DNA of 64,000 bases from a virus (IMGVR_UViG_3300010885_077086:16776-80775), one strand, 5' to 3'. Positions 1,328 through 59,278 are shown, counted from the stretch's first letter. Translations and numbers: made by a program. The notes: generated by a model not told the origin, from the letters alone.

Positions 1328-1876
1328 GTGAAATCACCAAAAAATAATCATCCATTTCTCAGCGAGATAAACCATAGGGTTGAGATTATAGGGGCTGCAA
1401 AATCTTTTTTAGAGAAAAATTTTGAATTAAAAATTAATCAAGCCCTAATTGGACATCTTTTTTTCGGACAAAGAGCGTTTGCCCTACCAGGAAGAGATAT
1501 AGGCCTTATGTATGGTGAAGAGACCAAATATTATCCAGAAGGATTTGAAGAAACAATTTTTCCTGGGCCAGTAGTTCTTATTGATGAAACTGGAACATCT
1601 TTTGATATTGGAATTGGTGAGATATTAAAAGATGATATTGGATTTTATTTTAAAAATATTCTAATAAATATCAGGATAAATAAAAATGATTCACATGATA
1701 TGAGTGGATTCTTTTCTGATAATTTTTTTATTCAAATCTATAAAATAGATAGCTACGGACTATTAAAAGAAGTTAATTTAACTGCTGTTTTAGAAACAAA
1801 AAAATTGTGCTCAGATTTTATCCTAAACACAATTTTTTTTAATTTAGAAAAGCTTTCCAGTTCTAGAGTTGTATGA
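1328..1876 (+). CDS. Hypothetical protein, possibly a divergent 'W-x-L-F-N' family member (ends ...ILNTIFFNLEKL)
   Basis: 182-aa ORF; C-terminus resembles the family motif. Confidence 0.55.
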   Translation: MKSPKNNHPFLSEINHRVEIIGAAKSFLEKNFELKINQALIGHLFFGQRAFALPGRDIGLMYGEETKYYPEGFEETIFPGPVVLIDETGTSFDIGIGEILKDDIGFYFKNILINIRINKNDSHDMSGFFSDNFFIQIYKIDSYGLLKEVNLTAVLETKKLCSDFILNTIFFNLEKLSSSRVV

Positions 1877-2086
1877 CGAAATTCCATATCTCTCTTTGTT
1901 TATTGGCTTTGGCTTCCAGCCCGCCCAATCTTCGAGATATTTCTCTGGAATCTCAGAGAGATCTTCTACCTTTCTACAATATGTAAATCTATCTTCTTCA
2001 AACTTCTCAAACCAAAATCCTCCAAAGATAAAAAACTGATCTCTTATCTCTGGACCCTTTCTTTTCTTTTTATCTAAAAGTCCCAT
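1844..2086 (-). CDS. Hypothetical protein
   Basis: 80-aa ORF with GAGG RBS. Confidence 0.55.
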   Translation of the reverse strand: MGLLDKKKRKGPEIRDQFFIFGGFWFEKFEEDRFTYCRKVEDLSEIPEKYLEDWAGWKPKPINKERYGISSYNSRTGKLF

Positions 2087-2307
2087 TTTAACCTCACTCT
2101 TCTTCTGCTTTTATTAAGAATTTTTCGGAATAGCTGACTACTTTTATTATACCGGATAGGCTCTTTAAACCAACTAAATTTGTTACGCCAGAATCATCAA
2201 TCCATTCAACTGTGAAAAATTCCCCAGAATAAAGAACTACATCACCTACTTTTATTTTTTTCATTGAGAATCCCTGCTATTATTTTTTTATTTAATAGAG
2301 GAATTTT

Positions 2308-3057
2308 ATGGATAAAATAAAGAGGGGCCTTGGCTATATAAACATTATAGTATCAATTCTTATTTTAATCATTTTTAACAAAGAGCTTTTAATTCCAAAA
2401 GATGGCCCAGTCAGTATCTTAGAGGAAAAAAGAAATTTTGCAGAGAAAAGAACAGTTTTAGTTGAGTGGAAAACTGCAAGCTGGAGCGGCGTTCTTTTTG
2501 ATTCAAATAATAAGTCATCAAGAATTTTAACCATAATTCATGAAGATTCTATGAAAAAAATAAAAGAATCTGGAAATATTAGTCTAAAAATTTCAGATCG
2601 AGAAGGCAAAAAGCATACTGCATCAATAAAGGGTTGGAATAGTTGCAATGAATTAGCAATGTTAGAAATTACAAATGGCTCAATAGCTTATAATAGCTCT
2701 TTAAACATTGAGCAAAGACAAGAAAACCTTTCGCAGAGCTTATTTTCATTTGGCCATCCACTTGGACTAAATCTACATTATGCAGAAGGATATCTTAGTT
2801 CTACTGGAAATAAAATAAAACCATGTGGAATGATAACAAATGGCTTTTCTGGAGGAACAATTCCTGGTCAAACAGGGTCTGGGGTCTGGAATACAAATGG
2901 AGAGCTTGCTGGACTTATAGTTGCAACATCTGCCATGCCAGTAAAGTCATATGATTCAAGTGGTAATCAGTCTGGAATATCTGTTATTCCCGTTACATTT
3001 CTTGGAAGATTTGTTCCTGCTTCAGAAATAAAAGTATTTTTAAAAAAATTACTTTAA
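2308..3057 (+). CDS. Membrane-anchored trypsin-like (S1) serine protease domain protein
   Basis: N-terminal TM; ILTIIH, ELAML, FGHPLGL, PGQTGSGVWNTNGELAGL (the usual G-N-S-G-G appears as GQTGS, so activity is uncertain). Confidence 0.7.
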   Translation: MDKIKRGLGYINIIVSILILIIFNKELLIPKDGPVSILEEKRNFAEKRTVLVEWKTASWSGVLFDSNNKSSRILTIIHEDSMKKIKESGNISLKISDREGKKHTASIKGWNSCNELAMLEITNGSIAYNSSLNIEQRQENLSQSLFSFGHPLGLNLHYAEGYLSSTGNKIKPCGMITNGFSGGTIPGQTGSGVWNTNGELAGLIVATSAMPVKSYDSSGNQSGISVIPVTFLGRFVPASEIKVFLKKLL

Positions 3058-3264
3058 AGGTTTTGAATTTAAATCATAAAGATAGACTATAACGTAGTAT
3101 TTTAAATTTTCTGCATAATCTAAAATATAATCTATGTCTTGTGCCTCAAAGCCTCTTATTATCTTATGCTCTTCTGAAAGTTTTAAATTTGAAAATATTT
3201 CAACTACAGCATCACACTTTGCAGTATTTCTATAAAATCTATTATCTATCACTTTCTTTATCAT
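3049..3264 (-). CDS. Hypothetical protein
   Basis: 71-aa ORF in minus-strand array. Confidence 0.5.
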   Translation of the reverse strand: MIKKVIDNRFYRNTAKCDAVVEIFSNLKLSEEHKIIRGFEAQDIDYILDYAENLKYYVIVYLYDLNSKPLK

Positions 3265-3409
3265 TAAATTTTAAAAAATATATTATTAGAAATAATGCAT
3301 TAAAAGTAAAAAATATTGACCATGCTGTCAGAAATCTTTCTTTATCAAATATAATCCAAAATATAAAGTTAAATACTGGATTAAGTATTTCAAAAAGAAA
3401 GTCTTCCAT
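3242..3409 (-). CDS. Small membrane protein (55 aa, not in ORF track)
   Basis: Hand translation MEDFLFEILNPVFNFIFWIIFDKERFLTAWSIFFTFNALFLIIYFLKF...; start overlaps upstream stop. Confidence 0.5.
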   Translation of the reverse strand: MEDFLFEILNPVFNFIFWIIFDKERFLTAWSIFFTFNALFLIIYFLKFNDKESDR

Positions 3410-3576
3410 CACATTCTATCTATCTTTATAAATTCCAAAAGATGGGCCGGAACATAAAGCTCTTCTTGCTCTATCCCTATCCACTCAATTGGATGTACTT
3501 TGTACAGGTTTCCAACTCTTTCTAATACATTAACCAAGATCCATGATTTATCAGGACAAATATATCTAGCTTGCAT
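3409..3576 (-). CDS. Small hypothetical protein (55 aa, not in ORF track)
   Basis: Hand translation MQARYICPDKSWILVNVLERVGNLYKVHPIEW...; AGGAG RBS; abuts neighbours. Confidence 0.55.
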   Translation of the reverse strand: MQARYICPDKSWILVNVLERVGNLYKVHPIEWIGIEQEELYVPAHLLEFIKIDRM

Positions 3577-3888
3577 TTATTCTCCTTTTTTAAGATCTAT
3601 CAGTGCTTTTGCTAATAGGCTCATTCCATGAGCTTTTCTTTTCTCTAATTCTTCAAAATATTCGGAAAGGTTCATTCCAAGTATTTTTAATGATTCGGAC
3701 TCCGTTATTCCAAATATAGAATTTGAAGAATCAAATTTAATAAGAATTCCATTATTTAGTTTCTTTTTTATTTGAAACTTAGATCCTGCTGGAAATCTAG
3801 GATTCTTTCTTTCTGTTGGAATAAGAAACCCGCGAGATCCAAGCGGAAGCACAGAGCAATTTACAAGAATTTCATTTAGCTTATTCAT
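3577..3888 (-). CDS. Hypothetical protein
   Basis: ORF; likely start MNKLNEI at 3888, after the upstream terminator. Confidence 0.55.
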   Translation of the reverse strand: MNKLNEILVNCSVLPLGSRGFLIPTERKNPRFPAGSKFQIKKKLNNGILIKFDSSNSIFGITESESLKILGMNLSEYFEELEKRKAHGMSLLAKALIDLKKGE

Positions 3889-3915
3889 TTTATTCTGCCT
3901 AAAAAATGGTACTGC

Positions 3916-3954
3916 AAAAAGAAGAGCCACCAAGAGATTTATTTCTTGGTGGCT
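3916..3954 (-). terminator. Rho-independent terminator
   Basis: Inverted repeat AGCCACCAAGA/TCTTGGTGGCT followed by a T-rich run on the minus strand. Confidence 0.75.
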
Positions 3955-3976
3955 AAACTTACTTAAGTTATTTAAG

Positions 3977-4090
3977 TTACTCTGCGCTATCTACAGCTGA
4001 TGCGCTATCTGCACTGTCTGACTTTCCACCAGTGCAAGCTGCGAGTGTTGCTACTGCTGCTACGAGAACCATTGTTACTACTTTTTTCAT
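3977..4090 (-). CDS. Tiny lipoprotein (37 aa, not in ORF track)
   Basis: MKKVVTMVLVAAVATLAA-CTGGKSDSADSASAVDSAE*; lipobox LAAC, GAGGAG RBS, terminator downstream. Confidence 0.75.
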   Translation of the reverse strand: MKKVVTMVLVAAVATLAACTGGKSDSADSASAVDSAE

Positions 4091-4341
4091 TTTGTCTCCT
4101 CTGTACTCTTGATTTCTTTTATTCTCATTCCGCTGGAAGCAAATCTCCACATTCTTGGCCAGCCCATTTCAAAAAAATAATGAGCAACATAGCCAATAAT
4201 ATTAGAGATTATTGTTAATCCAACTACAACCGTAAAGGAATGAAAATATATATAGTTTACTAACATTGTCAATGGCATTGAGAATAAAACTCTCCATACC
4301 AATACTTTCCAAAATATTTCTTTTTCATAGGAATGCTTCAC
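4087..4341 (-). CDS. Small two-TM membrane protein (DUF2061-like)
   Basis: K-x-L-x-W-R, two hydrophobic segments, HYFFEMGW motif. Confidence 0.65.
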   Translation of the reverse strand: MKHSYEKEIFWKVLVWRVLFSMPLTMLVNYIYFHSFTVVVGLTIISNIIGYVAHYFFEMGWPRMWRFASSGMRIKEIKSTEETK

Positions 4342-4412
4342 TCTATATAAAGAAATATTAGTCGGTGTCGTCCGACTAACGCTGACATTTTAATTCTTCA
4401 GTGAATTCTTTT

Positions 4413-4685
4413 TTAGTGAGCTGCGGTTGAGCTTGAGCTGGAAGTGCTGCTGCTTGACTGAGTTGCTGGTGCAGTGGTTACAGTTGAGGTGGTTCCAGCG
4501 GTGCTCTCAGTTGTAGAGGTTACTACTGAGGTAGCTGCTGCTGCATCAGTGGTTACTGTTGCCTCGGTGGTTACTGCAGTTGTCTCAGTTGAAGTTGGTG
4601 TGGTTGCAGCCTCAGTTGCGGCTGGAGCCTCTACCTTCTCTGCTGTTGAGCAAGCAAGTAGTGCAGATAGTACTAATGTTAACAT
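4413..4685 (-). CDS. Thr/Ala/Ser-rich low-complexity lipoprotein
   Basis: MLTLVLSALLA-C lipobox after AGGAG RBS; mucin-like tail. Confidence 0.75.
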   Translation of the reverse strand: MLTLVLSALLACSTAEKVEAPAATEAATTPTSTETTAVTTEATVTTDAAAATSVVTSTTESTAGTTSTVTTAPATQSSSSTSSSSSTAAH

Positions 4686-4778
4686 TTTAACTCCTATTTG
4701 TCGTTTAAATCGCTGCAACGATGAATTTCGTTGGGCAGCATAATAATACCCTTGTCGAGTAATACTGTCTAAAAATTC

Positions 4779-4997
4779 TTATATCCTTTTTTGATCTGTA
4801 TTATGAAAGACGACTGTTCTCCATCCTTCATAATTTAAAGGAATAAGCTTTCTAATTTCTTGCGATGATTCTTTTCCTTGCACATAAACTTCCAAAACAG
4901 AACCCCCATCATCGGAAGAAGTTTTTGTTGTGATATCTCTATCTCCAAATTCTCCTAATATTAATTTTTCTATTTCCTCTGGCGAAGGCTTTTTCAA
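4779..4997 (-). CDS. Hypothetical protein
   Basis: 72-aa ORF coupled to upstream gene. Confidence 0.55.
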   Translation of the reverse strand: MKKPSPEEIEKLILGEFGDRDITTKTSSDDGGSVLEVYVQGKESSQEIRKLIPLNYEGWRTVVFHNTDQKRI

Positions 4998-5263
4998 ACC
5001 GTAAATACCTTTATTTTGTGGGCCATTATTTTTTCACCTTGTTCTAACTTTATCTTTACGGGTTCTGGCTCATATTGCTTTAATAAAACAATAACTGGAG
5101 AGCTTGTCTTTTGATCTAGAAAAACCTCAATTAGTTTTCCTTTTATATTTTGACCAAAAGAATCTTTTATAGATATTTCTATAAAATCAGAATCATCTAA
5201 AGATGATTTTAATTTTTCAACAAAAGCTTCGGATTTTGAATTAATAATTTTTTCTAACTTCAT
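4994..5263 (-). CDS. Hypothetical protein
   Basis: 89-aa ORF. Confidence 0.55.
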   Translation of the reverse strand: MKLEKIINSKSEAFVEKLKSSLDDSDFIEISIKDSFGQNIKGKLIEVFLDQKTSSPVIVLLKQYEPEPVKIKLEQGEKIMAHKIKVFTV

Positions 5264-5329
5264 GATAGTGAAAAAATATATAAGTAGAAAATTAATATGG
5301 TAATAATAATTTTTTAACTGGAGGTTAAT

Positions 5330-5512
5330 ATGTCAGAGCAAGTAAAGATAAAGATTCCTTTTGGTAAAGTTGCTGCTTTTGCTGCAAGCTTAGTAGTAAA
5401 AGCTCGCGGCGGATTCACAAAAGATGAAGGACATCAGATTCTAGCTGAGTTTATGGAATTACTAGCCGATGTTCTCGCTGAAAATGCAAGCACAGTTGCT
5501 GGAAAAAAGTAA
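5330..5512 (+). CDS. Small hypothetical protein (putative late gene)
   Basis: GGAGG RBS; terminator downstream. Confidence 0.65.
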   Translation: MSEQVKIKIPFGKVAAFAASLVVKARGGFTKDEGHQILAEFMELLADVLAENASTVAGKK

Positions 5513-5532
5513 TTTTTTAAAAAAATAAAATT

Positions 5533-5556
5533 GGAGGGTTTCTGCCCTCCTTTTTT
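5533..5556 (+). terminator. Rho-independent terminator, possibly bidirectional
   Basis: GGAGGG...CCCTCC + T6 between convergent genes. Confidence 0.75.
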
Positions 5557-5557
5557 A

Positions 5558-5830
5558 TTAGCTTAATCTTTGAATTTCTCTCTGAATATACCAAAGAGCT
5601 TTTTGTAAATCTTCTACTTCAGTACTCTTATCTTTTAGTCCAGCTCTTGCAATATATTTTATTGCATTTCCTCTGCTAAAGTTTAGGTTCCAATCTTCAA
5701 TTGCATCAATAACTTCAATTTTACCTGAGTTATAATGAGCAGGATGATCTACTCTCACTGACTCTTTATTGCTTTTTTGTACTATTTTCTTTTGTGAGCT
5801 ATCATCTTCAAAAATATCATCTGAAGCCAT
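5558..5830 (-). CDS. DUF3310-family protein
   Basis: VDHPAHYNSGKIEVIDAI...GNAIKYIARAG.K...EDLQKALWYI signature. Confidence 0.88.
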   Translation of the reverse strand: MASDDIFEDDSSQKKIVQKSNKESVRVDHPAHYNSGKIEVIDAIEDWNLNFSRGNAIKYIARAGLKDKSTEVEDLQKALWYIQREIQRLS

Positions 5831-5883
5831 TTTGCACCTCTAGGATGATATTACCAACAGCAATAGTTTGCTTAAATTAAATA

Positions 5884-7398
5884 TTAATTTATTGTTTCTT
5901 TCATTATTTTAAATGCTTCTGATGGGGTTGATGGTGGTGGCTCTGTTTTTGATAGAGCATTTAGTATCGGCCTAACATCTTGCTCTGTTAGGTACTTTAC
6001 TTCTTTTCCTGTAAGATGTGTCAAATATTTGTGAATCATATCTTTATCTGGATATTTCATTACTGAGTTAGGAGATATTGTATCTTCTTTTAAGTTAATG
6101 TGGTTTGGATTTTCTGGAAGAAGTATTCCTCTGGCAGCTAATAAGCTGCCCATTCTATCTATTATGATTCCTTTTACATTTTCTTTGTCTTGTACTTTTG
6201 TCCAACCAGATATTTCTTTTGCAAAAAGATCTGAAGACAAATTTCCTGATTCATCTTTTATATTTGAAATAAACCGTACAAGATTTCTATGTCCAAAATT
6301 AAAAGATAATCTAGTTAGAGCATCATATAGAGACCTTGGAATTTTTGCATTACTATCTAACCCAGCATTATCAATTGCGTGATTTATTATATCATCTGCC
6401 TTTATTCTTTCTGCATCTTCTTTTTTTAATTTTTTCTTCCAGTTTATTTTTCTACCATTTTTAAGCTTAATTATGCCGGTTTTAAATTCATCTTCGGTTA
6501 TTTTATGACCGTATCCTATTGTCCATCCGGTTTTTACCCTATCTTTATCTCTTTTCCAATTAAGAGATTTATTATCATTATATGGAGTATCTTGAAATCC
6601 TTCATCTGATTTTAATCCACTTATTGCAATATCTGAAAAATCCATTTCACCAACTGTTCCAACTTCATCTACAAAATAATCATTTCCAATTCTTCTTGCA
6701 AATTTTGCCATTATCTCTTTTAGATCTGGATAGGCAACCTGTGCTCTTTCGGTATGTGGAAATAATTCAGTTTGTTTTAGCTGTAAACCAGATTCTTCAA
6801 ATGTAAGATTTTGATTATATTCTTTTAAAAACTCAATAATTATATCTTTTTTATCTTCAACCTGAATATCTGGATATATTTCTTTTATTATGGTATCGGT
6901 TTGTGTTCCAATTGGAAATTCTTTTTTTAACTTTATTAAGTTTGGTGATTCTTCAAGAGAAAAATCAGCAATTTTTTCTTCAAGAATTTCTTTTCCACCA
7001 AGATTATATCCCAATGCTCCAGCAAGGCCCAATCCCAAGAAAGCACTAAGAAGCATTGACTTTATGCTGCTCTTTATTGCCGCAGCCTCTTTTCTAAATC
7101 CAAATCCCTGTAGTGCAGCCTTAACTGACTTTAGCTTTGATAGCCTTTTCTTTAGTGCGCTATTTCTTTCGCCATAATCAAGGTTCTTTCTGAAAAATTC
7201 TGGAACATCACCTTTTCCACCGCGAGGAAAAACATGACTATCATCCGAAGAGTTTTGGTGTTTGAAATATTCTATCTGACGAAGTCTTTTTTTTGCACCG
7301 GCCATTGTTTTATAGGTTCCCATGTTTCTTCCCTTTTCGGAAAAAACACGAAATTTTTCTTTACCAATTTGTTTTATATAAGATTCTTTGATAAACAT
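5884..7398 (-). CDS. Multidomain protein with TM helix and C-terminal phage lysozyme (GH24-like) domain
   Basis: LKSDEGFQDTPYND...WTIGYGHKI and DALTRLSFNFG motifs; hydrophobic LLSAFLGLGLAGALG; basic N-terminal domain (KGRNMGTYKT...AKKRLRQIEYFKH). Confidence 0.75.
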   Translation of the reverse strand: MFIKESYIKQIGKEKFRVFSEKGRNMGTYKTMAGAKKRLRQIEYFKHQNSSDDSHVFPRGGKGDVPEFFRKNLDYGERNSALKKRLSKLKSVKAALQGFGFRKEAAAIKSSIKSMLLSAFLGLGLAGALGYNLGGKEILEEKIADFSLEESPNLIKLKKEFPIGTQTDTIIKEIYPDIQVEDKKDIIIEFLKEYNQNLTFEESGLQLKQTELFPHTERAQVAYPDLKEIMAKFARRIGNDYFVDEVGTVGEMDFSDIAISGLKSDEGFQDTPYNDNKSLNWKRDKDRVKTGWTIGYGHKITEDEFKTGIIKLKNGRKINWKKKLKKEDAERIKADDIINHAIDNAGLDSNAKIPRSLYDALTRLSFNFGHRNLVRFISNIKDESGNLSSDLFAKEISGWTKVQDKENVKGIIIDRMGSLLAARGILLPENPNHINLKEDTISPNSVMKYPDKDMIHKYLTHLTGKEVKYLTEQDVRPILNALSKTEPPPSTPSEAFKIMKETIN

Positions 7399-7421
7399 GC
7401 CCTATTTTGAAAAAGTAATAG

Positions 7422-7450
7422 AAAAGGCGGGAAGTTTTCTCTTCCCGCCT
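7422..7450 (-). terminator. Rho-independent terminator
   Basis: AGGCGGGAAG/CTTCCCGCCT inverted repeat + TTTT on the minus strand. Confidence 0.75.
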
Positions 7451-7459
7451 ATCTATTGG

Positions 7460-8422: not shown

Positions 8423-8430
8423 TTTAACTC

Positions 8431-16578: not shown

Positions 16579-17114
16579 TCCCTAGTATCAACTTTTTCAA
16601 ATTTAAATAGAGAGTCCATATTATAATAGGTTGTATCTTGGATAAAATCGCTTTTATTTTCTCTAAGAAAAACCTTTGTATGGATTGAATAGAGTCCAGA
16701 TGAAGGCGGAATACCTACGGTAAACCTATACTCAACCTCTCCTCCACCATCTACATATGAATATTTCCAATCTGGAGGAAAAAGCGGTGTCTTATCTACT
16801 GCTTTAATTGGAAATTCTACCGCTTTAATACCATCAATATCTATTATCTTATATTCAGAATTAGATGGAAGATGTCTTACAAAAAACTCTGCTTTATCAA
16901 AATATAGTCTAACTGACCCGTTATTCTTTACCCTAACCCAAACAATAGCCACCAATCCTGTATTGGATCTTCTAATGGTTTTTATACCTGACTCTAGTTT
17001 TGGCTTTGGGTAAAGCTCTCTTTTTAAAAGAAAGTCTTTTAAGATCCAGATACCGGCAGCAAAAGAAGTAATTGTTGGAAAAAGCACCTTTGGATCAGAG
17101 AATATCTCTATCAT
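16575..17114 (-). CDS. Membrane-anchored beta-rich hypothetical protein
   Basis: N-terminal TM followed by beta-strand-rich domain. Confidence 0.65.
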   Translation of the reverse strand: MIEIFSDPKVLFPTITSFAAGIWILKDFLLKRELYPKPKLESGIKTIRRSNTGLVAIVWVRVKNNGSVRLYFDKAEFFVRHLPSNSEYKIIDIDGIKAVEFPIKAVDKTPLFPPDWKYSYVDGGGEVEYRFTVGIPPSSGLYSIHTKVFLRENKSDFIQDTTYYNMDSLFKFEKVDTRD

Positions 17115-17443
17115 GTTAGTTTTAGCTCCGACAGCCTAAATAATATCCAATCCATGCATTGTGGCGTGTTTTCTTGGGCATAGGCAAACCATTCTTGCTT
17201 TGATGACTCAATCATTTCTTCATCTTTGAAGGTGTAGAATATTAGTTCATTTCCAGAGGCATGATAATGCTCTAAAAGCCAAATTATCTCTTTTCCATCC
17301 CACCACCCAAGAGAAGCAACATCAGAAGTTCCTTTTATTGGTATAAAAAAGAACATTCTGTGCTCTGGAAAATCAAAGCTATCGCTATCCCAAAAATTCC
17401 AAGGTAATGGCAAAGGCTCTAAGATTGAGTCAGGCATTACCAT
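17111..17443 (-). CDS. Hypothetical protein, 'W-x-L-F-N' family
   Basis: Ends FAYAQENTPQCMDWILFRLSEL. Confidence 0.7.
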   Translation of the reverse strand: MVMPDSILEPLPLPWNFWDSDSFDFPEHRMFFFIPIKGTSDVASLGWWDGKEIIWLLEHYHASGNELIFYTFKDEEMIESSKQEWFAYAQENTPQCMDWILFRLSELKLT

Positions 17444-26229: not shown

Positions 26230-26571
26230 TTGAAGCCAACACCATTTACAATAGGTGGTAAAAAATATTACCTTCATGATGTTATAAGTATAACAAATAG
26301 TTATGCTGATGTTAACTTTTTTGAATTTCAAATTTTAAAACCAGGAGAATATGAGCCAGATAAGATTTTAGTTTGGGTATCTGGCAAAACAAAACACGAA
26401 AGAAAGTGGACTTGGTTTATATATTTGAAAAGAGAAGGCCCAATAAAGGGAATATCATATCATTACTCTGACATAATATCTCCAGAAAGAGACACGGGGT
26501 TGTTTTTAAGGTACGTCAGAAGAAAAACTCCAGATGCCATTCCACATATCCTTTTTAATTATTTGATTTAG
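26230..26571 (+). CDS. Hypothetical protein, 'W-x-L-F-N' family
   Basis: Ends FLRYVRRKTPDAIPHILFNYLI. Confidence 0.6.
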   Translation: MKPTPFTIGGKKYYLHDVISITNSYADVNFFEFQILKPGEYEPDKILVWVSGKTKHERKWTWFIYLKREGPIKGISYHYSDIISPERDTGLFLRYVRRKTPDAIPHILFNYLI

Positions 26572-35271: not shown

Positions 35272-35592
35272 TCATAGGTGGGCCACGTTAAATAATACCC
35301 ATTCCAAAACATCCGGAGAATTCTCCTTTACAAAATCAATAAAGTATTCTTTTGTAGAAGATAACCGCGAACAATGGCTAAATCTTACAGAATAAGATGT
35401 TTCTTGAACAGAGCCATTGTCTGTTACGACCCAAACTGCCGATGGAAATATTCCATCGAAAAAGTAATATTCAACCTTATTTACGATCCATCCGTTATCC
35501 TCTCCCTCTTTGTATCTCGTTACATAAATGCCGCGAGGGAAAATTTTATCAGAATATAATTGATCGTAAGTTATTTCTTCTATCTTTTGCAT
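35272..35592 (-). CDS. Hypothetical protein, 'W-x-L-F-N' family
   Basis: Ends FIDFVKENSPDVLEWVLFNVAHL. Confidence 0.75.
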   Translation of the reverse strand: MQKIEEITYDQLYSDKIFPRGIYVTRYKEGEDNGWIVNKVEYYFFDGIFPSAVWVVTDNGSVQETSYSVRFSHCSRLSSTKEYFIDFVKENSPDVLEWVLFNVAHL

Positions 35593-37610: not shown

Positions 37611-37982
37611 TTATACTCTATCCGACGAATTCCAAAGATCCTGATTAAAAAGAAGCCACTCGGTTGCTGGATGATTTATATCTATTGTACGACTACAAAA
37701 TTCATCAAGGTTAGTGTAGAGAAGCTGGCCTCTTTCGTATGGAATATTTGAAGCAAGATAGGTTGCATTTAAGGCAACCATCTTTAGATTTTTATCAGAA
37801 AAAATAAAAATTGCAAAATATGGAATAGAATCATTTAACCAAAAATAAAGCTTATTAGACTCTAGAGAATCATCATACTGACAAAAATCAGCATAATAAA
37901 GCCCCGTTGGACTATGATTTTTTCCATGATAAATTGCCTCAAGTGAGTCTCGAAACAATCCAAGATAAACTGGCTCAATCAT
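37611..37982 (-). CDS. Hypothetical protein, 'W-x-L-F-N' family (tandem paralog)
   Basis: Ends INHPATEWLLFNQDLWN. Confidence 0.75.
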   Translation of the reverse strand: MIEPVYLGLFRDSLEAIYHGKNHSPTGLYYADFCQYDDSLESNKLYFWLNDSIPYFAIFIFSDKNLKMVALNATYLASNIPYERGQLLYTNLDEFCSRTIDINHPATEWLLFNQDLWNSSDRV

Positions 37983-38004
37983 GATTCCAAAGATCCTGAT
38001 TAAA
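37629..38004. repeat. 21-bp direct repeat ATTCCAAAGATCCTGATTAAA at the 3' ends of two tandem paralogs
   Basis: Copies at 37629-37649 and 37984-38004. Confidence 0.85.
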
Positions 38005-38358
38005 TAGTAGCCAGCCTGTTGCAGGGTGTTGGTTTAAAAGGAATCGATCTATAAATGTCTGAATGGGAACATAGACTAGATTATTTTCAGTGGCTAAATA
38101 CATTTTAGGCATAATTAGATTGTTGTTAATGGCGATTTTTATGGATGAATAATGATCTATTTCTCTTGGCATATAATATATAATAAATTCAACAAAAGAA
38201 TCTCCGGCATAAAACCAAATCTCATCAAACTTACCATTTGGATTATATTTGGATGAAGGAGTTTCAATCAATGCATGATATAAGCCAACTTTAGAAATAC
38301 AAGTTATTGCATAATAGCTGCTGCTAAATGTTCCGATGTTTATTGGTTCCATCTTCAT
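37975..38358 (-). CDS. Hypothetical protein, 'W-x-L-F-N' family (tandem paralog)
   Basis: Ends NQHPATGWLLFNQDLWN. Confidence 0.75.
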   Translation of the reverse strand: MKMEPINIGTFSSSYYAITCISKVGLYHALIETPSSKYNPNGKFDEIWFYAGDSFVEFIIYYMPREIDHYSSIKIAINNNLIMPKMYLATENNLVYVPIQTFIDRFLLNQHPATGWLLFNQDLWNHD

Positions 38359-45355: not shown

Positions 45356-46414
45356 TCACCCGTTGTATTTGCAAAATTCATCATAAGCAATAGATAGCGG
45401 CTCGATATTTAGCATGGCGCTAGACAGAACATGGCGAAGCTTTGGATGATTGATTGCAATATCCTTTCTTGACATGCCAGATCTGATCAACTCTTTTGTC
45501 TCTTCCCACTCGGATTCTACCGATGCCTTATATTTTACCCATCGTTCATCAATGGCATCAATCTTTTGATTTATCTCAGCAAAAAATTCATCTGGAATAC
45601 CATCCATTGAGAACTTTCCTGCTTCCTTTCTTTGCATCCAAAGATTAAAAATTCCAGAGTCAGATAGGCCGGTGACTACCTTATGAAGCTGAACATAAGT
45701 TTCGGTCTTAATCTTGCAGCGTTTTCCCTTAATATTTTTAAGAACGACACCTTCAAAGTTTGGATTAAGCTCCTTCTTGATTAGATCATAAGAAAACTCT
45801 TCTGCGGTCCAAAGCTTTGGCATTTGGAATCCAAAGCCGTCTGCATAAGACCTGATCTCTTCTTCGGTTGCTTCAGCGGCAGATTGAGTATCAACAATTC
45901 CAAGAAGGATTAGGGAATCCTTCTCATAATTTCTTACAACATTGATATTTGATGGGCCAACCAACTCAAAAAGATAGGTCTTTTTGTGATCCGCACCAGA
46001 AATAAAGCGTTTGCTGAGAAGATTTGGAGCGGAGAGAGCCTGGTCTGATGCCCAGCTTCCACGAGTAATAGTGTGCCAAGATCCTTCCCACCAAAATGCT
46101 ACAATTAGCGATCCATCTTCCTTAGTCCAAATCTCTGAGATTTTATCTGGAGAGAATTCTGAAGATGAGGCTCCAAGCTCTTCAAAATTAAAGAACTTCT
46201 CAAATGGTCTGGCAACAACCTTTCCTTCATTGGAGATTACGAGGCCACGACAAATAGAATTGACTTCGTTAAAAGCTTTTGAGAACTGAGTTTGCTCAGT
46301 GTAGTTATAAATAGAAAGCGGGAGGTTTGAGTGGGGAATTCTGCGAACTCTACCCAACTCAACCTCTACCGCTAAGTTTGCCAAAAATTCTGCGCTTAAC
46401 ATTAGTGTAGCCAC
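45356..46414 (-). CDS. T4 Rnl1-like RNA ligase
   Basis: CRGLV, ARPFEKFFN, KEDGSL, TRGS, FELVGP.N, FEGVVL, KIKT..Y. Confidence 0.9.
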   Translation of the reverse strand: MATLMLSAEFLANLAVEVELGRVRRIPHSNLPLSIYNYTEQTQFSKAFNEVNSICRGLVISNEGKVVARPFEKFFNFEELGASSSEFSPDKISEIWTKEDGSLIVAFWWEGSWHTITRGSWASDQALSAPNLLSKRFISGADHKKTYLFELVGPSNINVVRNYEKDSLILLGIVDTQSAAEATEEEIRSYADGFGFQMPKLWTAEEFSYDLIKKELNPNFEGVVLKNIKGKRCKIKTETYVQLHKVVTGLSDSGIFNLWMQRKEAGKFSMDGIPDEFFAEINQKIDAIDERWVKYKASVESEWEETKELIRSGMSRKDIAINHPKLRHVLSSAMLNIEPLSIAYDEFCKYNG

Positions 46415-46710
46415 TCCGAATTAAATAGAAACCATTCCATATACTCTGGATATTCTTTAGAAATATGTGATACAAACTCTTCTTGGGTACATCTCAAATC
46501 CCCAATATAAAAAAAGCTTTTATAACCTATTCTATCCTGCGGGCTGTCTATTTGCCACAAAATAGAATAATCATGATCTGGAGGCTTATATACTCTAATA
46601 TGTGATAGAGAAATTACTGAGCTATTTCTAATGAACACTTTATTTCCAACGTTTTCTTTTGCAATATCATTCCAATGCTCTAGGCCATTCAGTGTTATAA
46701 GCTTAATCAT
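46402..46710 (-). CDS. Hypothetical protein, 'W-x-L-F-N' family
   Basis: Ends FVSHISKEYPEYMEWFLFNSEWLH. Confidence 0.75.
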   Translation of the reverse strand: MIKLITLNGLEHWNDIAKENVGNKVFIRNSSVISLSHIRVYKPPDHDYSILWQIDSPQDRIGYKSFFYIGDLRCTQEEFVSHISKEYPEYMEWFLFNSEWLH

Positions 46711-49013: not shown

Positions 49014-49295
49014 TTAAGGTTTTTCTGAGCCTTCCCAAATTGCCCAGTTTACTGCAATGAAATCTTCTAGTGCCTCTTCTTGAGTTTGGTATTTGTGATC
49101 TCTGCTTTCTGCAGTCTTTATCTGCCTAATTATTGCTTCTTCGGCAGAGCAAGAAAAATAGGTGACATCGCCACATTTGCCAGGCTCTACCCAAACAAGA
49201 TACTTGTGTAATTTACAGTTGCAATTATGCCAATCTGAGTGCCAACCGCAACCATCATCATGTTTTGGCTCTAAAACTTGTTCCATATTAACCAC
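49014..49295 (-). CDS. Hypothetical Cys/His-rich protein
   Basis: ALEDFIAVNWA C-terminal pattern. Confidence 0.6.
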   Translation of the reverse strand: MVNMEQVLEPKHDDGCGWHSDWHNCNCKLHKYLVWVEPGKCGDVTYFSCSAEEAIIRQIKTAESRDHKYQTQEEALEDFIAVNWAIWEGSEKP

Positions 49296-49672
49296 TCCGC
49301 AAATAAGGGGTACTCCATAAGCTTTTCTAATGATTCAGACTTAGAAAGAAATGTATTTGGAGAGGCAAAATCACTCAAGAATCTTGAATCATTAAAATAA
49401 AGGCTTAATGTCGTATCAAATGGACCTTGTTCTGCATAAAAAGAAAATTCTCCTATGTAATTTCTTTCATAAAAAGAAAGTACCACAAGATCTCTAGATT
49501 GTAATCCTGCAAGTGCTGGAAAGTGCTCAAATAGAACTTTTATTGAAGAGTTCTCACTAAGAAGTATTTCTCCAAGGAATCCTCTTCCATAAAAAGTGCT
49601 TGGCCTTACCGAAACAAGGTTTTTATAATCCAGAATATCTAATAATTTTTTATCAGTAAAGCTTGGTTTCAT
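49271..49672 (-). CDS. Hypothetical protein, 'W-x-L-F-N' family
   Basis: Ends LEKLMEYPLFAEWLIWNKF. Confidence 0.7.
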   Translation of the reverse strand: MKPSFTDKKLLDILDYKNLVSVRPSTFYGRGFLGEILLSENSSIKVLFEHFPALAGLQSRDLVVLSFYERNYIGEFSFYAEQGPFDTTLSLYFNDSRFLSDFASPNTFLSKSESLEKLMEYPLFAEWLIWNKF

Positions 49673-49701: not shown

Positions 49702-50847
49702 ATGATTAACTTACTATATTTTATTTTAGCCTGCTCTGATTATGAACTAAAGCCAAATGAACCAGATCCAATTGGCGAAACCCCAGCAATAGAAGTTACT
49801 CCAGACAGTATTTTATTTTCAGAAATTCCAAATGGATCAACAGTAACTGAAAATGTAACAATAAAATCTGTTGGCGGAACTACTCTAAATGTAGTAAGCA
49901 TAGAGCTTGATTCCGGATTTAACTTTGAGCTTATAAATGTTGGTCCGGTTTCTTTGGCACCAGCAGAGGAATCTAATTTTATAGTAAAATGGATCTCAGA
50001 AGGTGTTGAGGATTCCGATTCAATCATAATAACCTCAAATGATCCTGCTAACTCTAGAGTCGTCGTTCCCATAAATGGTACTCCAGAGGAAGAGGAAATT
50101 ACTGATACAGGAGACTCTGGAACTCCAATTTCTCAACCTGTCGCAGTTTGCTCCGTTGACCCAGCAGAAGTAGAGGCTATTCACGGAACGGCAGACTGGA
50201 TTGGATCATCTTCTTATGATCCAAGCGGTGGAACAATAACAAATTATGATTGGAGCCTTATTTCTGTCCCATCAGGTTCGCCAGATTCTATGCCTAGTGG
50301 TGGAGCAAATAGAAGAAATTTCTCTCCAACGATAGTTGGTGAATATATCGGGCAGCTAATAGTAACAAGCTCAACAGGATTATCTTCAGAACCCTGTTAT
50401 GCTACACTTAGCGCAATTCCCGGTGGAAACCTTTGGATTGAAATGTTTTGGCAACATTCTGGAGACGATATGGATCTTCATCTTGTAAAACCAAGTGGAT
50501 CTCTAACATCATCTGGAGACTGTTATTATGCAAATTGCACTAGCGGAACACTTGATTGGGGTATTGCAGGAGACAGGAGGGATAATCCAATTTTAGATCT
50601 TGATGATATTCCAGGAACAGGTCCAGAGAATATTAATATTGATGCTCCAATGAATGGTCTTTATACGGTTTATGTTCATGATTATCCTGGCTCAGTATAC
50701 AGCGGAAGAAATGATGTTACCGTTAATATTTATATTGGCGGACTATTAGAGTGGACTGACACTAGGAATGTTGATTCAGAAGGATATTACTCTCCATTCT
50801 GCGAAATAGATTGGATTTCAGGATCTGGATCAGTAATTTCTTTATAA
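49702..50847 (+). CDS. Myxobacterial-type surface lipoprotein: Ig-like (choice-of-anchor D) + PKD-like + YfaP/DUF2135-like domains
   Basis: MINLLYFILA-C; IEVTP...F...I.S.G...L...I.SNDP; G..SYDP.G...Y.W; DMDLHL...CYYANC...LDLDD..G.GPENI. Confidence 0.8.
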   Translation: MINLLYFILACSDYELKPNEPDPIGETPAIEVTPDSILFSEIPNGSTVTENVTIKSVGGTTLNVVSIELDSGFNFELINVGPVSLAPAEESNFIVKWISEGVEDSDSIIITSNDPANSRVVVPINGTPEEEEITDTGDSGTPISQPVAVCSVDPAEVEAIHGTADWIGSSSYDPSGGTITNYDWSLISVPSGSPDSMPSGGANRRNFSPTIVGEYIGQLIVTSSTGLSSEPCYATLSAIPGGNLWIEMFWQHSGDDMDLHLVKPSGSLTSSGDCYYANCTSGTLDWGIAGDRRDNPILDLDDIPGTGPENINIDAPMNGLYTVYVHDYPGSVYSGRNDVTVNIYIGGLLEWTDTRNVDSEGYYSPFCEIDWISGSGSVISL

Positions 50848-51167
50848 ATTCCCTCAAATATTTCTGGATTCCAGAGAAAGAATTCAAAATCATCGGGATA
50901 TAGTCGCATAATCTTTTCTAAAAAGATATCTTTTGGATAATCAAAGAACCTATTCTGCTCATCAAAAATAGAATATACGCATTTTATTGTCCAAATTGAC
51001 CAAGATATATCGCCAGCTTCATCATAACACGTAATATCTAAATCTGGCTTATTTCCGCCAATTATCTTGGTTACACCTTCTAGAATTATAATCTTATTGA
51101 ATACGCCGCCCCTCTCCATAAGATTAAATGGAGCGTTATTCTCAAAAAAGATTATTTCTTTTTTCAT
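50787..51167 (-). CDS. Hypothetical protein, 'W-x-L-F-N' family
   Basis: FLEKIMRLYPDDFEFFLWNPEIF. Confidence 0.7.
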   Translation of the reverse strand: MKKEIIFFENNAPFNLMERGGVFNKIIILEGVTKIIGGNKPDLDITCYDEAGDISWSIWTIKCVYSIFDEQNRFFDYPKDIFLEKIMRLYPDDFEFFLWNPEIFEGIYKEITDPDPEIQSISQNGE

Positions 51168-52154: not shown

Positions 52155-53429
52155 TCACCAAGATCCCATTAAAATATCTGGAATATCAAATCCACCGCTT
52201 TCGTTCTGGTAAAGCTCCATTATTGCCGCAACACATCTTCCTACTGCAAGACCAGATGCGTTAAGAGTATGAAGGAACTCATTCTTTCCAGATGAAGATT
52301 TATACTTAAGATTCGCACGACGAGCCTGAAAATCCCAAAATAGAGTTGCAGAGGAAATCTCTCGATAGGCTCCCTGTCCAGCCATCCAAACCTCAATGTC
52401 ATATCCCTTGTAACCGCCAAAGCCAAGGTCTGCGGTACAACGCTCAATTACTCGATATGGCAGGCCAAGAGCCTGTAATACTGACTCAGCATCAGCAGTA
52501 ATCTTTTCAAGCTCTGCCAAAGAATCAGATGGGTTACAGAAAGATACAAGCTCTACCTTATGAAACTGATGAAGTCTAATTAGACCCTTAATGTCTCGAC
52601 CAGCTGATCCTGCCTCTGCTCTAAAGCAAGGAGTAAATGCAGCATGACGAATTGGAAGTGAATCTTCTGGCAGAATAACATCACGATATAGGTTTGTAAC
52701 AGGAACTTCTGCGGTTGGAATTAGAAATGCATCTTCTCCACCCAACTTTGCAGTTACTTTGAATAGATCCTCTTCAAACTTTGGAAGCTGACCTGTTCCA
52801 GTCATTGTTGTGCGAGTTACAATGTAAGGTACTGCAACCTCAGTATAGCCTCTTGCGGTATGCCAATCAAGAAAAAAGTTTGTTAAGCGACGATCTAGCT
52901 TTGCTGCATCGCCCTTCATAACCATAAATCTTGAGCCAGAAAGCTTTGCTCCATCCTCTCCAGATAGAGTTCCTGTATTCTCTCCAATCTGATCGTGAGT
53001 TAAGGCTTTCTTTACAGCAAGATGATCTCCCCAAGACCTTACTACAGGATTGTCAGAGTCGCCCTCTCCATCTGGTGTTGAATCAGATGGAATATTTGGG
53101 ATGTGGAGTAGTAGCTCCTCTTCTTTTTCTTGAAAGTGAGAAAGAGAAGCTTCTAAATTTTGAATTCTATGCTTAAGATCTGATAGCGATGACTGCTCAG
53201 AAGCTCTTTCTTCTGGAGAAAGTCCTTTTGCCTTAAGTCCAAACTCTTTACTTCTTACATTCATTTCTGCTCTAAATTTATCTAGAATAGATTGAGTATC
53301 TTTTCTAGATCTAATTAGTATTCCAATCTCAGAAAGATATGTGGCAATTTCTTCGTTGTTGCCAACCTTTCTCTTTATTTTTGCTACCGTTGCATCGTAG
53401 TCTTTTGTAAATAGATTTTTATCTAACAT
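52155..53429 (-). CDS. serS: Seryl-tRNA synthetase
   Basis: N-terminal coiled coil, IPNIP, GTGQLPKFEEDLF, LIPTAEVP, CFRAEAGS.GRD.KGLIRLHQF.KVE, YREISS, HTLNASGLAVGR. Confidence 0.96.
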   Translation of the reverse strand: MLDKNLFTKDYDATVAKIKRKVGNNEEIATYLSEIGILIRSRKDTQSILDKFRAEMNVRSKEFGLKAKGLSPEERASEQSSLSDLKHRIQNLEASLSHFQEKEEELLLHIPNIPSDSTPDGEGDSDNPVVRSWGDHLAVKKALTHDQIGENTGTLSGEDGAKLSGSRFMVMKGDAAKLDRRLTNFFLDWHTARGYTEVAVPYIVTRTTMTGTGQLPKFEEDLFKVTAKLGGEDAFLIPTAEVPVTNLYRDVILPEDSLPIRHAAFTPCFRAEAGSAGRDIKGLIRLHQFHKVELVSFCNPSDSLAELEKITADAESVLQALGLPYRVIERCTADLGFGGYKGYDIEVWMAGQGAYREISSATLFWDFQARRANLKYKSSSGKNEFLHTLNASGLAVGRCVAAIMELYQNESGGFDIPDILMGSW

Positions 53430-56942: not shown

Positions 56943-57248
56943 ATGTCTATAGCAAAAACAATAGAAAAGACACCAATGCAATCTAAGAAATTCTTGGCCT
57001 ATCTTTTGAGCAATATAGTGAATAAGGCACTTATATTTTGGATGGTTCAAAAGGGAGTTGGGGGAACTACTATAGCTTGGACAGTAACTGCGGCTGCCTT
57101 TATTGATATTGGATATATCTTAGGGCAAGCCGCATTAGATGGTTTTGTGAGAATGGCTCATGTAAAAGGATCTTCTATTATAAAGTCAGCAAAAAATATT
57201 AAGACTGACTCCATCGAGGAAAGCGGCGACCAGCCGACTCTTCCCTAG
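56943..57248 (+). CDS. Holin-like two-TM membrane protein
   Basis: SKKF + hydrophobic helices + YILGQ; TACTAAT upstream; near a GH73 hydrolase. Confidence 0.55.
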   Translation: MSIAKTIEKTPMQSKKFLAYLLSNIVNKALIFWMVQKGVGGTTIAWTVTAAAFIDIGYILGQAALDGFVRMAHVKGSSIIKSAKNIKTDSIEESGDQPTLP

Positions 57249-57522
57249 ATTCCCATTCATCAATATCTTCTTCATCTGGATCTTCTTGGCCAAACTCTGC
57301 TGCTTGATATCTATTTAGATCTTCAATCTCTTCTTCTGAAAGCTCTTCATCTGCACCTTCAAGAAGTGACTCAATATCTTCTTCTGTTGCATATCCAACA
57401 TCAGATTCGGTATCATCAGTCTGTGATGCAACGCGCCTGATAATTACGTCTACAATATCTGACTCCTTCTTAAATCCTGCCTTATCAAGCTCTTGTGCAA
57501 TTTTTACTAAGTTTTTTAACAT
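57199..57522 (-). CDS. Small late protein: K-x-A leader + acidic tail
   Basis: MLKNLVKIAQELDKAGFKKESDIVDVIIRRVAS, then D/E-rich. Confidence 0.75.
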   Translation of the reverse strand: MLKNLVKIAQELDKAGFKKESDIVDVIIRRVASQTDDTESDVGYATEEDIESLLEGADEELSEEEIEDLNRYQAAEFGQEDPDEEDIDEWESREESAGRRFPRWSQS

Positions 57523-57565
57523 TGAAACCTCGCTTTACTAATATGAATATGATTAATAGAGTTTT

Positions 57566-58600
57566 ATGAATAAAATTATAAGAAAAAATAAACTTAACTA
57601 CCTTTTTAAGATTGCCAGCGACAATCTTATGTCAATTTGGTCTGTTTCAAGACCTCAAAGATTTTCAGAAGATGAATCTGGTCTAAATTCTTGGATTAAT
57701 GATATAAAATCAAAGATTGGAACAGATGATGAAACAATTTTGGCAGGAATATTAAGGGATGAACTTAATCCAATTGTACTATCCTCAATGGAAGATTGGC
57801 AAGATTTTTCTGTTATATTTCCAAAGGGAGAGGAAATAAGAAAGGCTTGGAAGAAAAATGGAGATAAAACATTTTTTTCTTTCTTGGATTGGACAAAAAA
57901 ATCTGGCGTATCAAACTTGCAGGCTGCATTAGATAAGATAAATAGCCTTCAGTCTAAGCCAATGGAGCCTGTGAGTATTAAGGCTCCAGCTAAGCCAGAA
58001 AATGTCCAAAATATGGTAGAGAAAAGTACCTCAAATGGTGCTAAATCTACCGGTGATACTTGGCTAATGGAAATTTCTGATGCCGTTAAGTCTATCTCTA
58101 ATGCAAATGGTATTCCAGAGGGAATTATTTTTGCACAAGGAGCATTAGAATCAAGCTATGGTAAAAATCACATTGGCGGATTTAATTATTTTGGAATGAA
58201 GGGAGAAGGCACCGCTGGCTCTATTTCTGCAAAAACAAAAGAAGAATTTAAGCCAGGAGAAATGTCAACAATAAAAGATAAGTTTAAAAGATTTAACAAC
58301 ATAGAAGAGGGCTTTCAGTCTTATGCAAATCTATTAAAACAAAGCAATAGATTCTCCTATGCAACACAAGCCTTCTCAGATGATCCTGCAAAATTTGCAA
58401 TATGGATTTGGGGCAGAGGCTATGCTACCGACTCCAAATATCCAGATAAACTTTCTTCTATTTCAAAAAATATTGCTCAAAAGCTGGGCAGACCAGATTT
58501 AGCTTGGGATTATGATGCAGAAGAAAGAAGAATTATAGATACTCTATCTTCTATGCGACCAGAAGATAGAGTATCTAAGACTGTTGAGTTATTAAAATAA
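57566..58600 (+). CDS. Glucosaminidase (GH73/FlgJ-like) peptidoglycan hydrolase with N-terminal extension
   Basis: AQGALESSYG, NYFGMKG, TKEE, FKRF, GYATD..Y..KL; TACTAAT at 57536. Confidence 0.85.
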   Translation: MNKIIRKNKLNYLFKIASDNLMSIWSVSRPQRFSEDESGLNSWINDIKSKIGTDDETILAGILRDELNPIVLSSMEDWQDFSVIFPKGEEIRKAWKKNGDKTFFSFLDWTKKSGVSNLQAALDKINSLQSKPMEPVSIKAPAKPENVQNMVEKSTSNGAKSTGDTWLMEISDAVKSISNANGIPEGIIFAQGALESSYGKNHIGGFNYFGMKGEGTAGSISAKTKEEFKPGEMSTIKDKFKRFNNIEEGFQSYANLLKQSNRFSYATQAFSDDPAKFAIWIWGRGYATDSKYPDKLSSISKNIAQKLGRPDLAWDYDAEERRIIDTLSSMRPEDRVSKTVELLK

Positions 58601-58608
58601 CTTAACTA

Positions 58609-58914
58609 CTACTCGGAGGGCTTCTTTTCTGCCTCAGCCTTCTTCTCTAGAATCTTTACTCGACCAGAACACTTGTCGGCAAGAGCGGCAATCTCTAGTG
58701 GAGGAAGCCCATCGACAAAGAAAGAGAAGAAACGACGCTTATGCTCCTCGTAAAGAGCGGCACGAGCCTTCTCAAGAGTCTCTTCAAGATCGTTGATCTT
58801 GATCGTATCTCGCAAAAGACCCTGACAAGCCTTCATCATTTCAATATCATTTGAGCTTTCAATGATGCTGCGAACTTCCTCAAAACGATTAAATGGCTTC
58901 TTTTCCTTAGACAT
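58609..58914 (-). CDS. Hypothetical coiled-coil protein
   Basis: AGGAG RBS. Confidence 0.65.
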   Translation of the reverse strand: MSKEKKPFNRFEEVRSIIESSNDIEMMKACQGLLRDTIKINDLEETLEKARAALYEEHKRRFFSFFVDGLPPLEIAALADKCSGRVKILEKKAEAEKKPSE

Positions 58915-58924
58915 TTTTTTACTC

Positions 58925-59278
58925 CTAGATTGGAATTAGAGAACGAAAAATTGGCTTATAATTCTTTTCTAAAAAATCGCCGTATTCTGGAAAATGCTTT
59001 TTTACATCAAGCAAAAAAGATCTTGGATCATTTAATGGATTTACGCTATAATATGTTCTTCCTAGGCAAGCACCATAAAAGAATCCTGTGTTTGTTGCAG
59101 AAAAATAAAAACCATATGTTTCGTATGGATAAATCTTATCAAGCTCTGGAATATCTCCAGAAAAAATTGTCAATGACGCTTGAAAAGATATTTTATCTTC
59201 TGGTTCTTTTAAAATCTTAAAGCTTGTCTGCCAGACAGATTGCCAATCAGCAGATGAAAGATAGGTTGGTTCTAACAT
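58925..59278 (-). CDS. Hypothetical protein, degenerate 'W-x-L-F-N' family member
   Basis: Starts MLEPTYL; FLLDVKKHFPEYGDFLEKN. Confidence 0.6.
   Translation of the reverse strand: MLEPTYLSSADWQSVWQTSFKILKEPEDKISFQASLTIFSGDIPELDKIYPYETYGFYFSATNTGFFYGACLGRTYYSVNPLNDPRSFLLDVKKHFPEYGDFLEKNYKPIFRSLIPI

Follow-up and report, generated by a model that had tools for sequence, protein, structure and literature searches.

Small genes scattered over a stretch of virus DNA encode proteins with similar C-terminal ends, raising the question whether these genes form one family and what its products may do for the virus. The stretch (hereafter the window) comprises 64,000 nucleotides, corresponding to bases 16776-80775 of one linear virus record of 80.8 kb, IMGVR_UViG_3300010885_077086. 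The source virus is an uncultivated huge phage with a GC (guanine plus cytosine) content of 33-42%; CheckV estimates the 80.8 kb record to be about 40% complete, indicating a genome of roughly 200 kb. An earlier note, made from the sequence alone, had described a dispersed family of about 11 proteins with variable bodies and a conserved C-terminal motif, which it took for a common docking helix. On the evidence of sequence comparison, seven window genes are one family: 17111, 26230, 35272, 37611, 37975, 46402 and 50787. The family is previously undescribed, its members being single-domain proteins of about 100-130 amino acids (aa). Genes are named here by the coordinate quoted in the note, which is the 3' end for minus-strand genes; in 26230, located on the plus strand, the motif lies near 26530-26565.

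Motif recurrence and family membership

All eleven open reading frames (ORFs) were found where the note had placed them, and the tails it quoted were reproduced on translation. A loose tail pattern, P-x(3,4)-[WFHY]-x-[LIF]-[FW]-[NRH], matched 9 of the 142 genes of the contig, compared to a mean of 0.36 and a maximum of 4 matches in 2000 trials with shuffled residues. The recurrence of the tail motif is far beyond chance. Hidden Markov models (HMMs) were then built with one candidate left out each time, and the 297 ORFs of at least 50 aa were searched with them. In these leave-one-out searches 17111, 35272, 37611, 37975 and 46402 each ranked first among the 297 (E 1e-4 to 3e-7). The genes 50787 and 26230 ranked first, too, at weak scores (E 0.01-0.1), and as external homologs fill the subfamilies of both, their membership is settled. 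Links between single pairs were obtained by BLASTP for 37611 and 37975 (E 4e-12), for 35272 and 17111 (E 5e-4), and for 46402 and 35272 (E 0.002).

The remaining four candidates behaved differently. Neither 49271 nor 28031 was recovered among the 297 ORFs by the leave-one-out HMMs. With the enlarged profile, 49271 was matched over its last 12 residues only (E about 2), and hhalign aligned it to the family over 32 columns covering just the two tail helices (local P 9e-4, probability 23%), which is not significant. This likeness, limited to the tail, makes 49271 a possible distant member. The genes 58925, 28031 and 1328 scored at background level with the enlarged profile and reached hhalign local P values of 0.09, 0.28 and 0.23, respectively; sequence comparison does not support them as family members. 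Thus, the family of the earlier note stands with seven secure members and one possible one, and its count was too high by three or four.

Further features named in the note can be assigned to the secure members. The M-[ILM]-x-P start is a feature of the family, the proline being present in 37 of 61 filled alignment rows. The proteins are indeed rich in aromatic residues (16% F, W and Y compared to 10% in background genes of similar size), and they span 102-127 aa rather than the 100-180 aa given originally.

A word-indexed search yielded near-orthologs of single members only. In contrast, a HMMER profile search of 1.84 billion cluster representatives returned 24 clusters at E <= 1e-3, all of them 91-130 aa long and all aligning end to end. 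These homologs are unnamed metagenomic proteins, none with a Pfam domain, and they populate separate subfamilies around 35272, 17111, the 37611/37975 pair, 26230, 50787 and 46402. Several are encoded on contigs of 316, 378, 379 and 384 kb (among them P0016, P0027, P0039, P0042, P0085 and P0088). Judged by these representatives, the family occurs only in one clade of huge phages from freshwater and groundwater. A separate search aimed at fused or longer forms gave none, which is weak evidence. P0027 had no tblastn match in the INPHARED phage collection, a GTDB genome contig scan with it returned nothing, and scans of IMG/VR revealed one close relative of the record only, the 72 kb record G001. 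Literature searches by topic and by motif strings returned nothing relevant.

The view of the earlier note that no named family is recognisable was confirmed, since Pfam, PHROGs, PDB sequences as well as solved and viral predicted folds gave no match. In hmmscan searches of Pfam and PHROGs with 10 window proteins and 35 aligned members, no family was common to more than one member (best E 0.007), and a profile search of PDB sequences gave no match at E <= 10. Two leads from the ESM Atlas, each with few shared features, were rejected. These were LPD28 (PF18843) for 35272 (cosine 0.76) and DUF7738 (PF24880) for 37611 (cosine 0.91). The paralogs point to different families and the profile tests failed. 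Neither family gave a match by hmmscan, which was the test applied to PF18843, and a six-frame search of the contig with PF24880 yielded nothing at E <= 10.

Predicted fold and place of the conserved tail

The AlphaFold2 model of 35272, based on an alignment of 35 sequences, is a confidently predicted single domain (predicted local distance difference test score, pLDDT, 91.9; predicted template modelling score, pTM, 0.83). A five-stranded antiparallel sheet (residues 21-30, 36-45, 54-59, 64-70 and 76-79) is followed by two helices (81-91 and 93-103), both carrying the tail motif. The 10-residue blocks of these helices have mean pLDDT values of 97 and 96, the highest in the model. The model of 46402 (17-sequence alignment) is of low confidence (pLDDT 58) and exhibits the same order of elements. 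The structure prediction proposed in the note thus yielded a shared fold, confidently for one member and at low confidence for the other.

Conservation extends along the whole length of the family alignment, tail included. Read from the N-terminus, an M-[ILM]-x-P segment forming a short strand comes first, strands with G-[LI]-Y, W-x-I and Y-x-I follow in this order, and the tail hairpin stands last; its motif can be refined to [ST]-K-E-x-F-h-[D]-[FY]-V-x(4)-P-[DE]-x-h-[ED]-W-h-L-[FW]-[NH]-x-[ED]-x-L. Accordingly, the middles of the proteins, formerly regarded as not alignable by eye, are aligned by the profile, and instead of a variable body the whole protein appears as one predicted domain with conserved strand positions. 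In the model, the motif is a helix-Pro-helix hairpin inside this one compact domain.

On a helical wheel drawn from the alignment columns, helix 2 has its hydrophobic and aromatic positions spread over an arc of about 260 degrees, which suggests a largely buried element. The motif helices therefore look, in the predicted structure, like the helical core of the fold rather than a detachable docking peptide. The docking helix proposed in the note would, if exposed, fit this picture less well, the two motif helices being the best-predicted part of the model and the wide hydrophobic arc agreeing better with a buried core. A clamp-binding tail (QL[SD]LF-type) or another linear-motif tail, as well as an AAA+ adaptor tail, were considered and rejected, since the prediction places the motif in packed helices and not in a flexible tail.

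Structural searches with the 35272 model gave no clear relatives. Foldseek reached a best E of 0.035 against PDB and of 0.01 against BFVD, and VIA-align a best Z of 4.8 among 48,161 representative chains and of 4.7 among the Foldseek top 1000. Even unrelated chains reach higher Z values than these two, according to the tool. The neighbours found at this noise level include PieF, Vif, TipC2, AcrIIA11, TriTu, PipX and the RNA polymerase beta lobe. They can be taken as leads at most.

Gene setting, tandem arrays and turnover

The seven paralogs are scattered through a region of the phage that is rich in genes for RNA and translation enzymes (Table 1), and the neighbours named in the note (exoribonuclease, lysS, RNA ligase, NUDIX) were borne out. 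Most window members overlap a neighbouring gene at its stop or start, the neighbours being lysS, the exoribonuclease gene, the RNA ligase gene and unnamed genes, and translational coupling to the neighbours prevails. The genes 26230 and 49271 have AT-rich promoter-like upstream regions of their own.

Table 1. Family genes of the window and the possible distant member, as assigned by sequence comparison
Coordinates	Strand	Feature	Evidence
17111..17443	-	member, 110 aa, pI (isoelectric point) 4.3, tail TPQCMDWILFRL; overlaps both flanking genes	leave-one-out E 1e-4
26230..26571	+	member, 113 aa, pI 9.4, TTG start, tail TPDAIPHILFNYLI	leave-one-out E 0.009-0.1
35272..35592	-	member, 106 aa, protein modelled	leave-one-out E 3e-6
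37611..37982	-	member, 123 aa, tail HPATEWLLFNQDLWN	leave-one-out E 3e-6; BLASTP against 37975 E 4e-12
37975..38358	-	member, 127 aa, first of tandem pair; start overlaps lysS stop	BLASTP, leave-one-out HMM
46402..46710	-	member, 102 aa, tail YPEYMEWFLFNSEWLH; overlaps RNA ligase gene start	leave-one-out E 3e-7
50787..51167	-	member, 126 aa, tail YPDDFEFFLWNPEIFEGIY plus acidic extension; downstream of NUDIX	leave-one-out E 0.014-0.04
49271..49672	-	possible distant member, 133 aa	likeness limited to tail YPLFAEWLIWNKF and preceding helix

Each of the seven window paralogs groups with orthologs from other phages in a subfamily of its own in a maximum-likelihood tree, indicating that the duplications are old. 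The largest subfamily is that of 35272 (P0028, P0031, P0033-P0037). The 3'-5' exoribonuclease gene and 35272 overlap by stop and start in the sequence TAATG, and an AAA ATPase gene lies downstream of 35272. The 17111 subfamily comprises P0029, P0030 and L024:776-1123 with a support of 100, and 46402 groups with P0038 and P0044. A subfamily with the signature LW[NH]PEIF[DE]G is formed by 50787, P0027, P0039, P0040, P0042 and much of the L023 array described below; the 3' end of 50787 overlaps a convergent Ig/PKD-like gene (49663-50847). As the lone plus-strand gene, 26230 adjoins the gene for initiation factor IF-1 and has, according to a promoter scan, a promoter-like site at 26139-26166. Many orthologs of 113 aa exist for it, and the profile search identified P0024, P0026 and P0032 as more distant members. 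The gene 37611 is the second of the tandem pair downstream of lysS.

A metagenome scan with a pattern of the 35272 subfamily returned eight contigs, two of which carry tandem arrays. On the groundwater contig L023 (11.4 kb, 46% GC), positions 710 to 9505 harbour about 17-20 family genes, all on the same strand and arranged head to tail. L024 (13.5 kb) is syntenic with positions 4-17 kb of the window and carries 8-9 tandem members at 6878-9379 as well as the 17111 ortholog. Array members cluster in the tree more than expected by chance, indicating that the expansions are partly lineage-specific. No informative or toxin domains were detected next to the arrays; the neighbours seen were a helix-turn-helix (HTH) protein, a TnpB-like protein and a GIY-YIG endonuclease. 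On L024, a distant relative, the gene of a TnpB/Cas12f-like protein of 423 aa (1584-2855, plus strand) is inserted; the genes on its two sides are homologs of 16131-16550 and 15050-15895 in the window.

The record G001 and the contig are collinear, with a nucleotide identity of 84-95%, and G001 keeps orthologs of 17111, 26230, 35272, 37611 and 50787. It lacks 37975 and 46402 according to collinear blastn, with an indel at 46402, and has a single 37611-like gene at the site of the tandem pair. Beyond the contig end G001 encodes three further members, so that the pan-genome of both comprises at least ten in about 100 kb. With seven members in the window and the arrays mentioned above, the family is expanded as the note had stated. 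The ratio of nonsynonymous to synonymous substitution rates (dN/dS, Nei-Gojobori) between the contig and G001 was 0.066-0.145 for the five orthologous members, compared to a median of 0.126 for 73 other genes; for example, the 17111 orthologs are 77% identical with a dN/dS of 0.11, and the value for 26230 is 0.08. These sequence comparisons indicate that the member orthologs are real genes under ordinary purifying selection.

In the relatives L019 and L021 the exoribonuclease and AAA ATPase flanking the 35272 slot are 73-88% identical to those of the window, the member in that slot being only 33-36% identical. The 37611 ortholog of L021 occupies the same slot after lysS and is 79.5% identical (lysS itself 79%). 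The description of the family as fast-diversifying is therefore only partly correct. Gene presence varies and the 35272 slot has diverged strongly, but dN/dS equals the genome background and the paralogs are old.

Some other window genes differ between the two records, too. The minus-strand gene 58925-59278, one of the candidates not supported as a member, encodes a protein starting with MLEPTYL and ending in a degenerate F-x(7)-P-E-x(3)-F-L tail, for which the family match was not significant; the whole gene is missing from G001, making it another indel-prone small gene. A homing endonuclease gene of the GIY-YIG/NUMOD3 type (39679-40644, minus strand) overlaps lysS at its 5' end. The site includes about 1.3 kb without counterpart in G001, a relative with 93% identity, and this looks like a recent mobile insertion. 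The products of 22720-24939 and 30656-31315 (both minus strand) share no more than 46% and 52% identity with the corresponding G001 proteins, with neighbours at 85-97%, and are candidates for host-interaction or otherwise fast-evolving proteins.

The record has no close DNA match in the GenBank/INPHARED phage collection. It encodes a translation toolkit consisting of IF-1 (25915-26145), the lysyl-tRNA synthetase LysRS (lysS, 38355-39746), a SpoU-type RNA methylase (47857-48402) and the seryl-tRNA synthetase SerRS (52155-53429); the 64 kb window contains no tRNA genes. An RNA ligase, the 3'-5' exoribonuclease and the NUDIX enzyme are encoded as well. Further genes encode a DNA ligase, the AAA ATPase, a metallophosphoesterase, a phosphoglucomutase, UvdE and the GIY-YIG endonuclease. 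The majority of the other large proteins of the record had no Pfam or PHROGs match, and among ten large neighbouring proteins searched against PHROGs a metallophosphoesterase was the sole match. Two metabolic genes adjoin each other at 60353-63238 (minus strand). They encode a di-haem cytochrome c peroxidase (MauG/CCP) and an acyl-CoA dehydrogenase of 630 aa, which are unusual as auxiliary metabolic genes of a phage, and both are kept in G001 at 93-96% amino-acid identity.

Two more pairs of paralogs were observed. The adjoining plus-strand genes 10604-12580 (658 aa) and 12582-14042 (486 aa) encode distant paralogs (27% identity over 121 aa, E 2e-5) without Pfam or PHROG match, and counterparts of both occur in L024. 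The second is a pair of small proteins of about 100 aa (51642-51944 and 57199-57522, minus strand), which are 66% identical over the first 32 residues (E 3e-11) and divergent afterwards, i.e. they have an N-terminal module in common.

Possible function and comparison with known systems

Among the functions considered, we rank diversified binders or inhibitors first, at roughly even chances, the enzyme-accessory, hub-adaptor and immunity readings being its rivals. Accordingly, in this undescribed single-domain family the conserved hairpin would, together with the N-terminal segment, form the hydrophobic core that holds the fold, with the sheet and its loops providing a diversified surface. Each paralog would recognise a different protein partner in the infected cell, such as host factors, defence proteins or the phage's own RNA and translation enzymes, and would act by stoichiometric binding or inhibition and not by catalysis. 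The proteins probably serve host takeover or counter-defence. The non-enzymatic character is suggested by their composition, the proteins being acidic (median pI 4.96, 81% below 6), aromatic-rich and without any polar residue that is invariant; conservation is seen in columns of G, Y, W, I, F, P and L.

Several observations weigh against diversified binders held together by a hairpin core. The 26230 subfamily is basic (pI 9.4), unlike the acidic rest. The core role of the motif is deduced from predicted secondary structure, pLDDT and a helical wheel. Moreover, one face of helix 2 keeps W, F and N as exact residues, and this face could, to judge from the alignment, equally be a shared interface. 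Finally, stable synteny beside particular enzymes in distant relatives and the ordinary dN/dS resemble housekeeping partners more than arms-race effectors.

The proteins might instead be accessory subunits or regulators of the neighbouring RNA and translation enzymes (lysS, exoribonuclease, RNA ligase, NUDIX, IF-1), one paralog for each. Members overlap or abut the genes of the named enzymes, the orders exoribonuclease-member-AAA and lysS-member-phosphoesterase persist in L019 and L021, and the purifying selection is the same as that on the neighbours. However, the arrays of L023 and L024, with 8-20 copies, have no such enzymes beside them, 37975 and 46402 can be lost while lysS and RNA ligase stay, and in a region so dense in these enzymes adjacency is expected by chance. 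We therefore consider this explanation unlikely.

Alternatively it might be that the C-terminal hairpin docks all paralogs on one hub of the host or phage, e.g. an AAA+ machine, RNA polymerase or the ribosome, and that the variable sheet recruits or blocks targets. This would account for the exact W, F and N on one face of helix 2, where other hydrophobic positions vary among aliphatics, and for the same tail being kept by many diverged paralogs; an AAA ATPase gene is located two genes from 35272 in three relatives. But no other part of the single compact domain is packed as confidently as the hairpin, whose hydrophobic arc exceeds what a simple surface helix would show, and conservation extends beyond the tail, leaving hub docking no more probable than enzyme accessories. 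In a more specific form, the W/F/N face would dock every paralog on one machine of host or phage, be it an AAA+ unfoldase or protease, RNA polymerase or the ribosome, and the sheet would select a client or defence protein, making the paralogs interchangeable adaptors. This form is quite unlikely; if it were true, the family would be a bacterial-virus counterpart of the poxvirus ANK/PRANC proteins or of HIV Vif, and the arrays of about 20 genes would represent a rapidly re-targetable repertoire.

Tandem arrays of diverged small acidic paralogs could also point to an immunity-type function, i.e. an array of small inhibitors directed against toxins or effectors of competing phages or of host abortive-infection systems. 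TipC2 (Z 4.2), TriTu (Z 3.6), AcrIIA11 and PieF are among the weak structural neighbours (Z 3.6-4.8), the first two being the sole immunity proteins listed by VIA-align, and an Imm44 cluster appeared as an ESM feature lead only (0.84). These structural scores lie at noise level, within the range for unrelated chains. No toxin domains are found next to the arrays, and the SMI1_KNR4/Imm (SUKH/Imm) models of Pfam gave no match at E <= 1 in 35 members, so that such a function appears improbable. That a short hydrophobic tail merely recurs in unrelated ORFs is a negligible possibility, since shuffles, leave-one-out HMMs, external homologs and the confident common fold exclude it for the core seven, even if 28031, 58925, 1328 and perhaps 49271 look like chance or very remote matches.

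Huge phages hold large numbers of unexplained small genes. Here, eleven loose look-alikes have become a defined family with a profile, a refined motif, a confidently predicted fold and a known distribution. This family is a tractable candidate for new host-takeover or counter-defence activities or for a new adaptor principle. Should its members merely be structural accessories of phage enzymes, the family would still be a new domain worth a database entry.

Among structurally known proteins, PipX has its elements in the order seen in the model, with a five-stranded sheet ahead of two C-terminal helices. Its comparison with the 35272 model (3n5b chain B; Z 3.6, 71 of 86 residues, root mean square deviation, rmsd, 3.9) remains in the chance range of the tool, and to our knowledge PipX is restricted to cyanobacteria. 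The lobe of the RNA polymerase beta subunit (e.g. 6yys chain C and 4kbj chain A) reached Z values up to 4.7 over 74-81 residues (rmsd 3.2-3.7), in the chance range as well, and a structure search of the ESM Atlas returned an Rpb2 domain 2 cluster with a template modelling (TM) score of 0.43, again in the chance range. Neither PipX nor the beta lobe has sequence similarity to the family.

Viral adaptors consisting of a variable body and a conserved C-terminal docking element are known from the poxvirus ankyrin/PRANC proteins and HIV Vif. As in these, the paralogs described here keep one conserved C-terminal element and diverge in the rest. Vif chains are among the weak structural neighbours, with Z values of 4.4-4.6 over 78-80 residues (rmsd 3.2-3.4), below the level of unrelated chains. 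In contrast to PRANC and Vif, the conserved element belongs to a compact predicted domain and is not an appended motif, and we know of no bacterial hub for such a motif.

Multi-copy families of diversified small proteins are known from large DNA viruses and from conflict loci such as the polymorphic-toxin immunity arrays (SUKH/Imm). The family resembles immunity-gene arrays in its small, mostly acidic, non-enzymatic-looking domains, its diverged paralogs, its tandem arrays and its differences in gene presence. It differs from SUKH/Imm arrays in having no Imm/SMI1_KNR4 match, no structural similarity above noise and no adjacent toxin genes, and from immunity arrays in general by several members residing in stable syntenic slots under ordinary purifying selection. 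Old subfamilies combined with local amplification are a pattern typical of binders of diverse partners in virus-host conflict.

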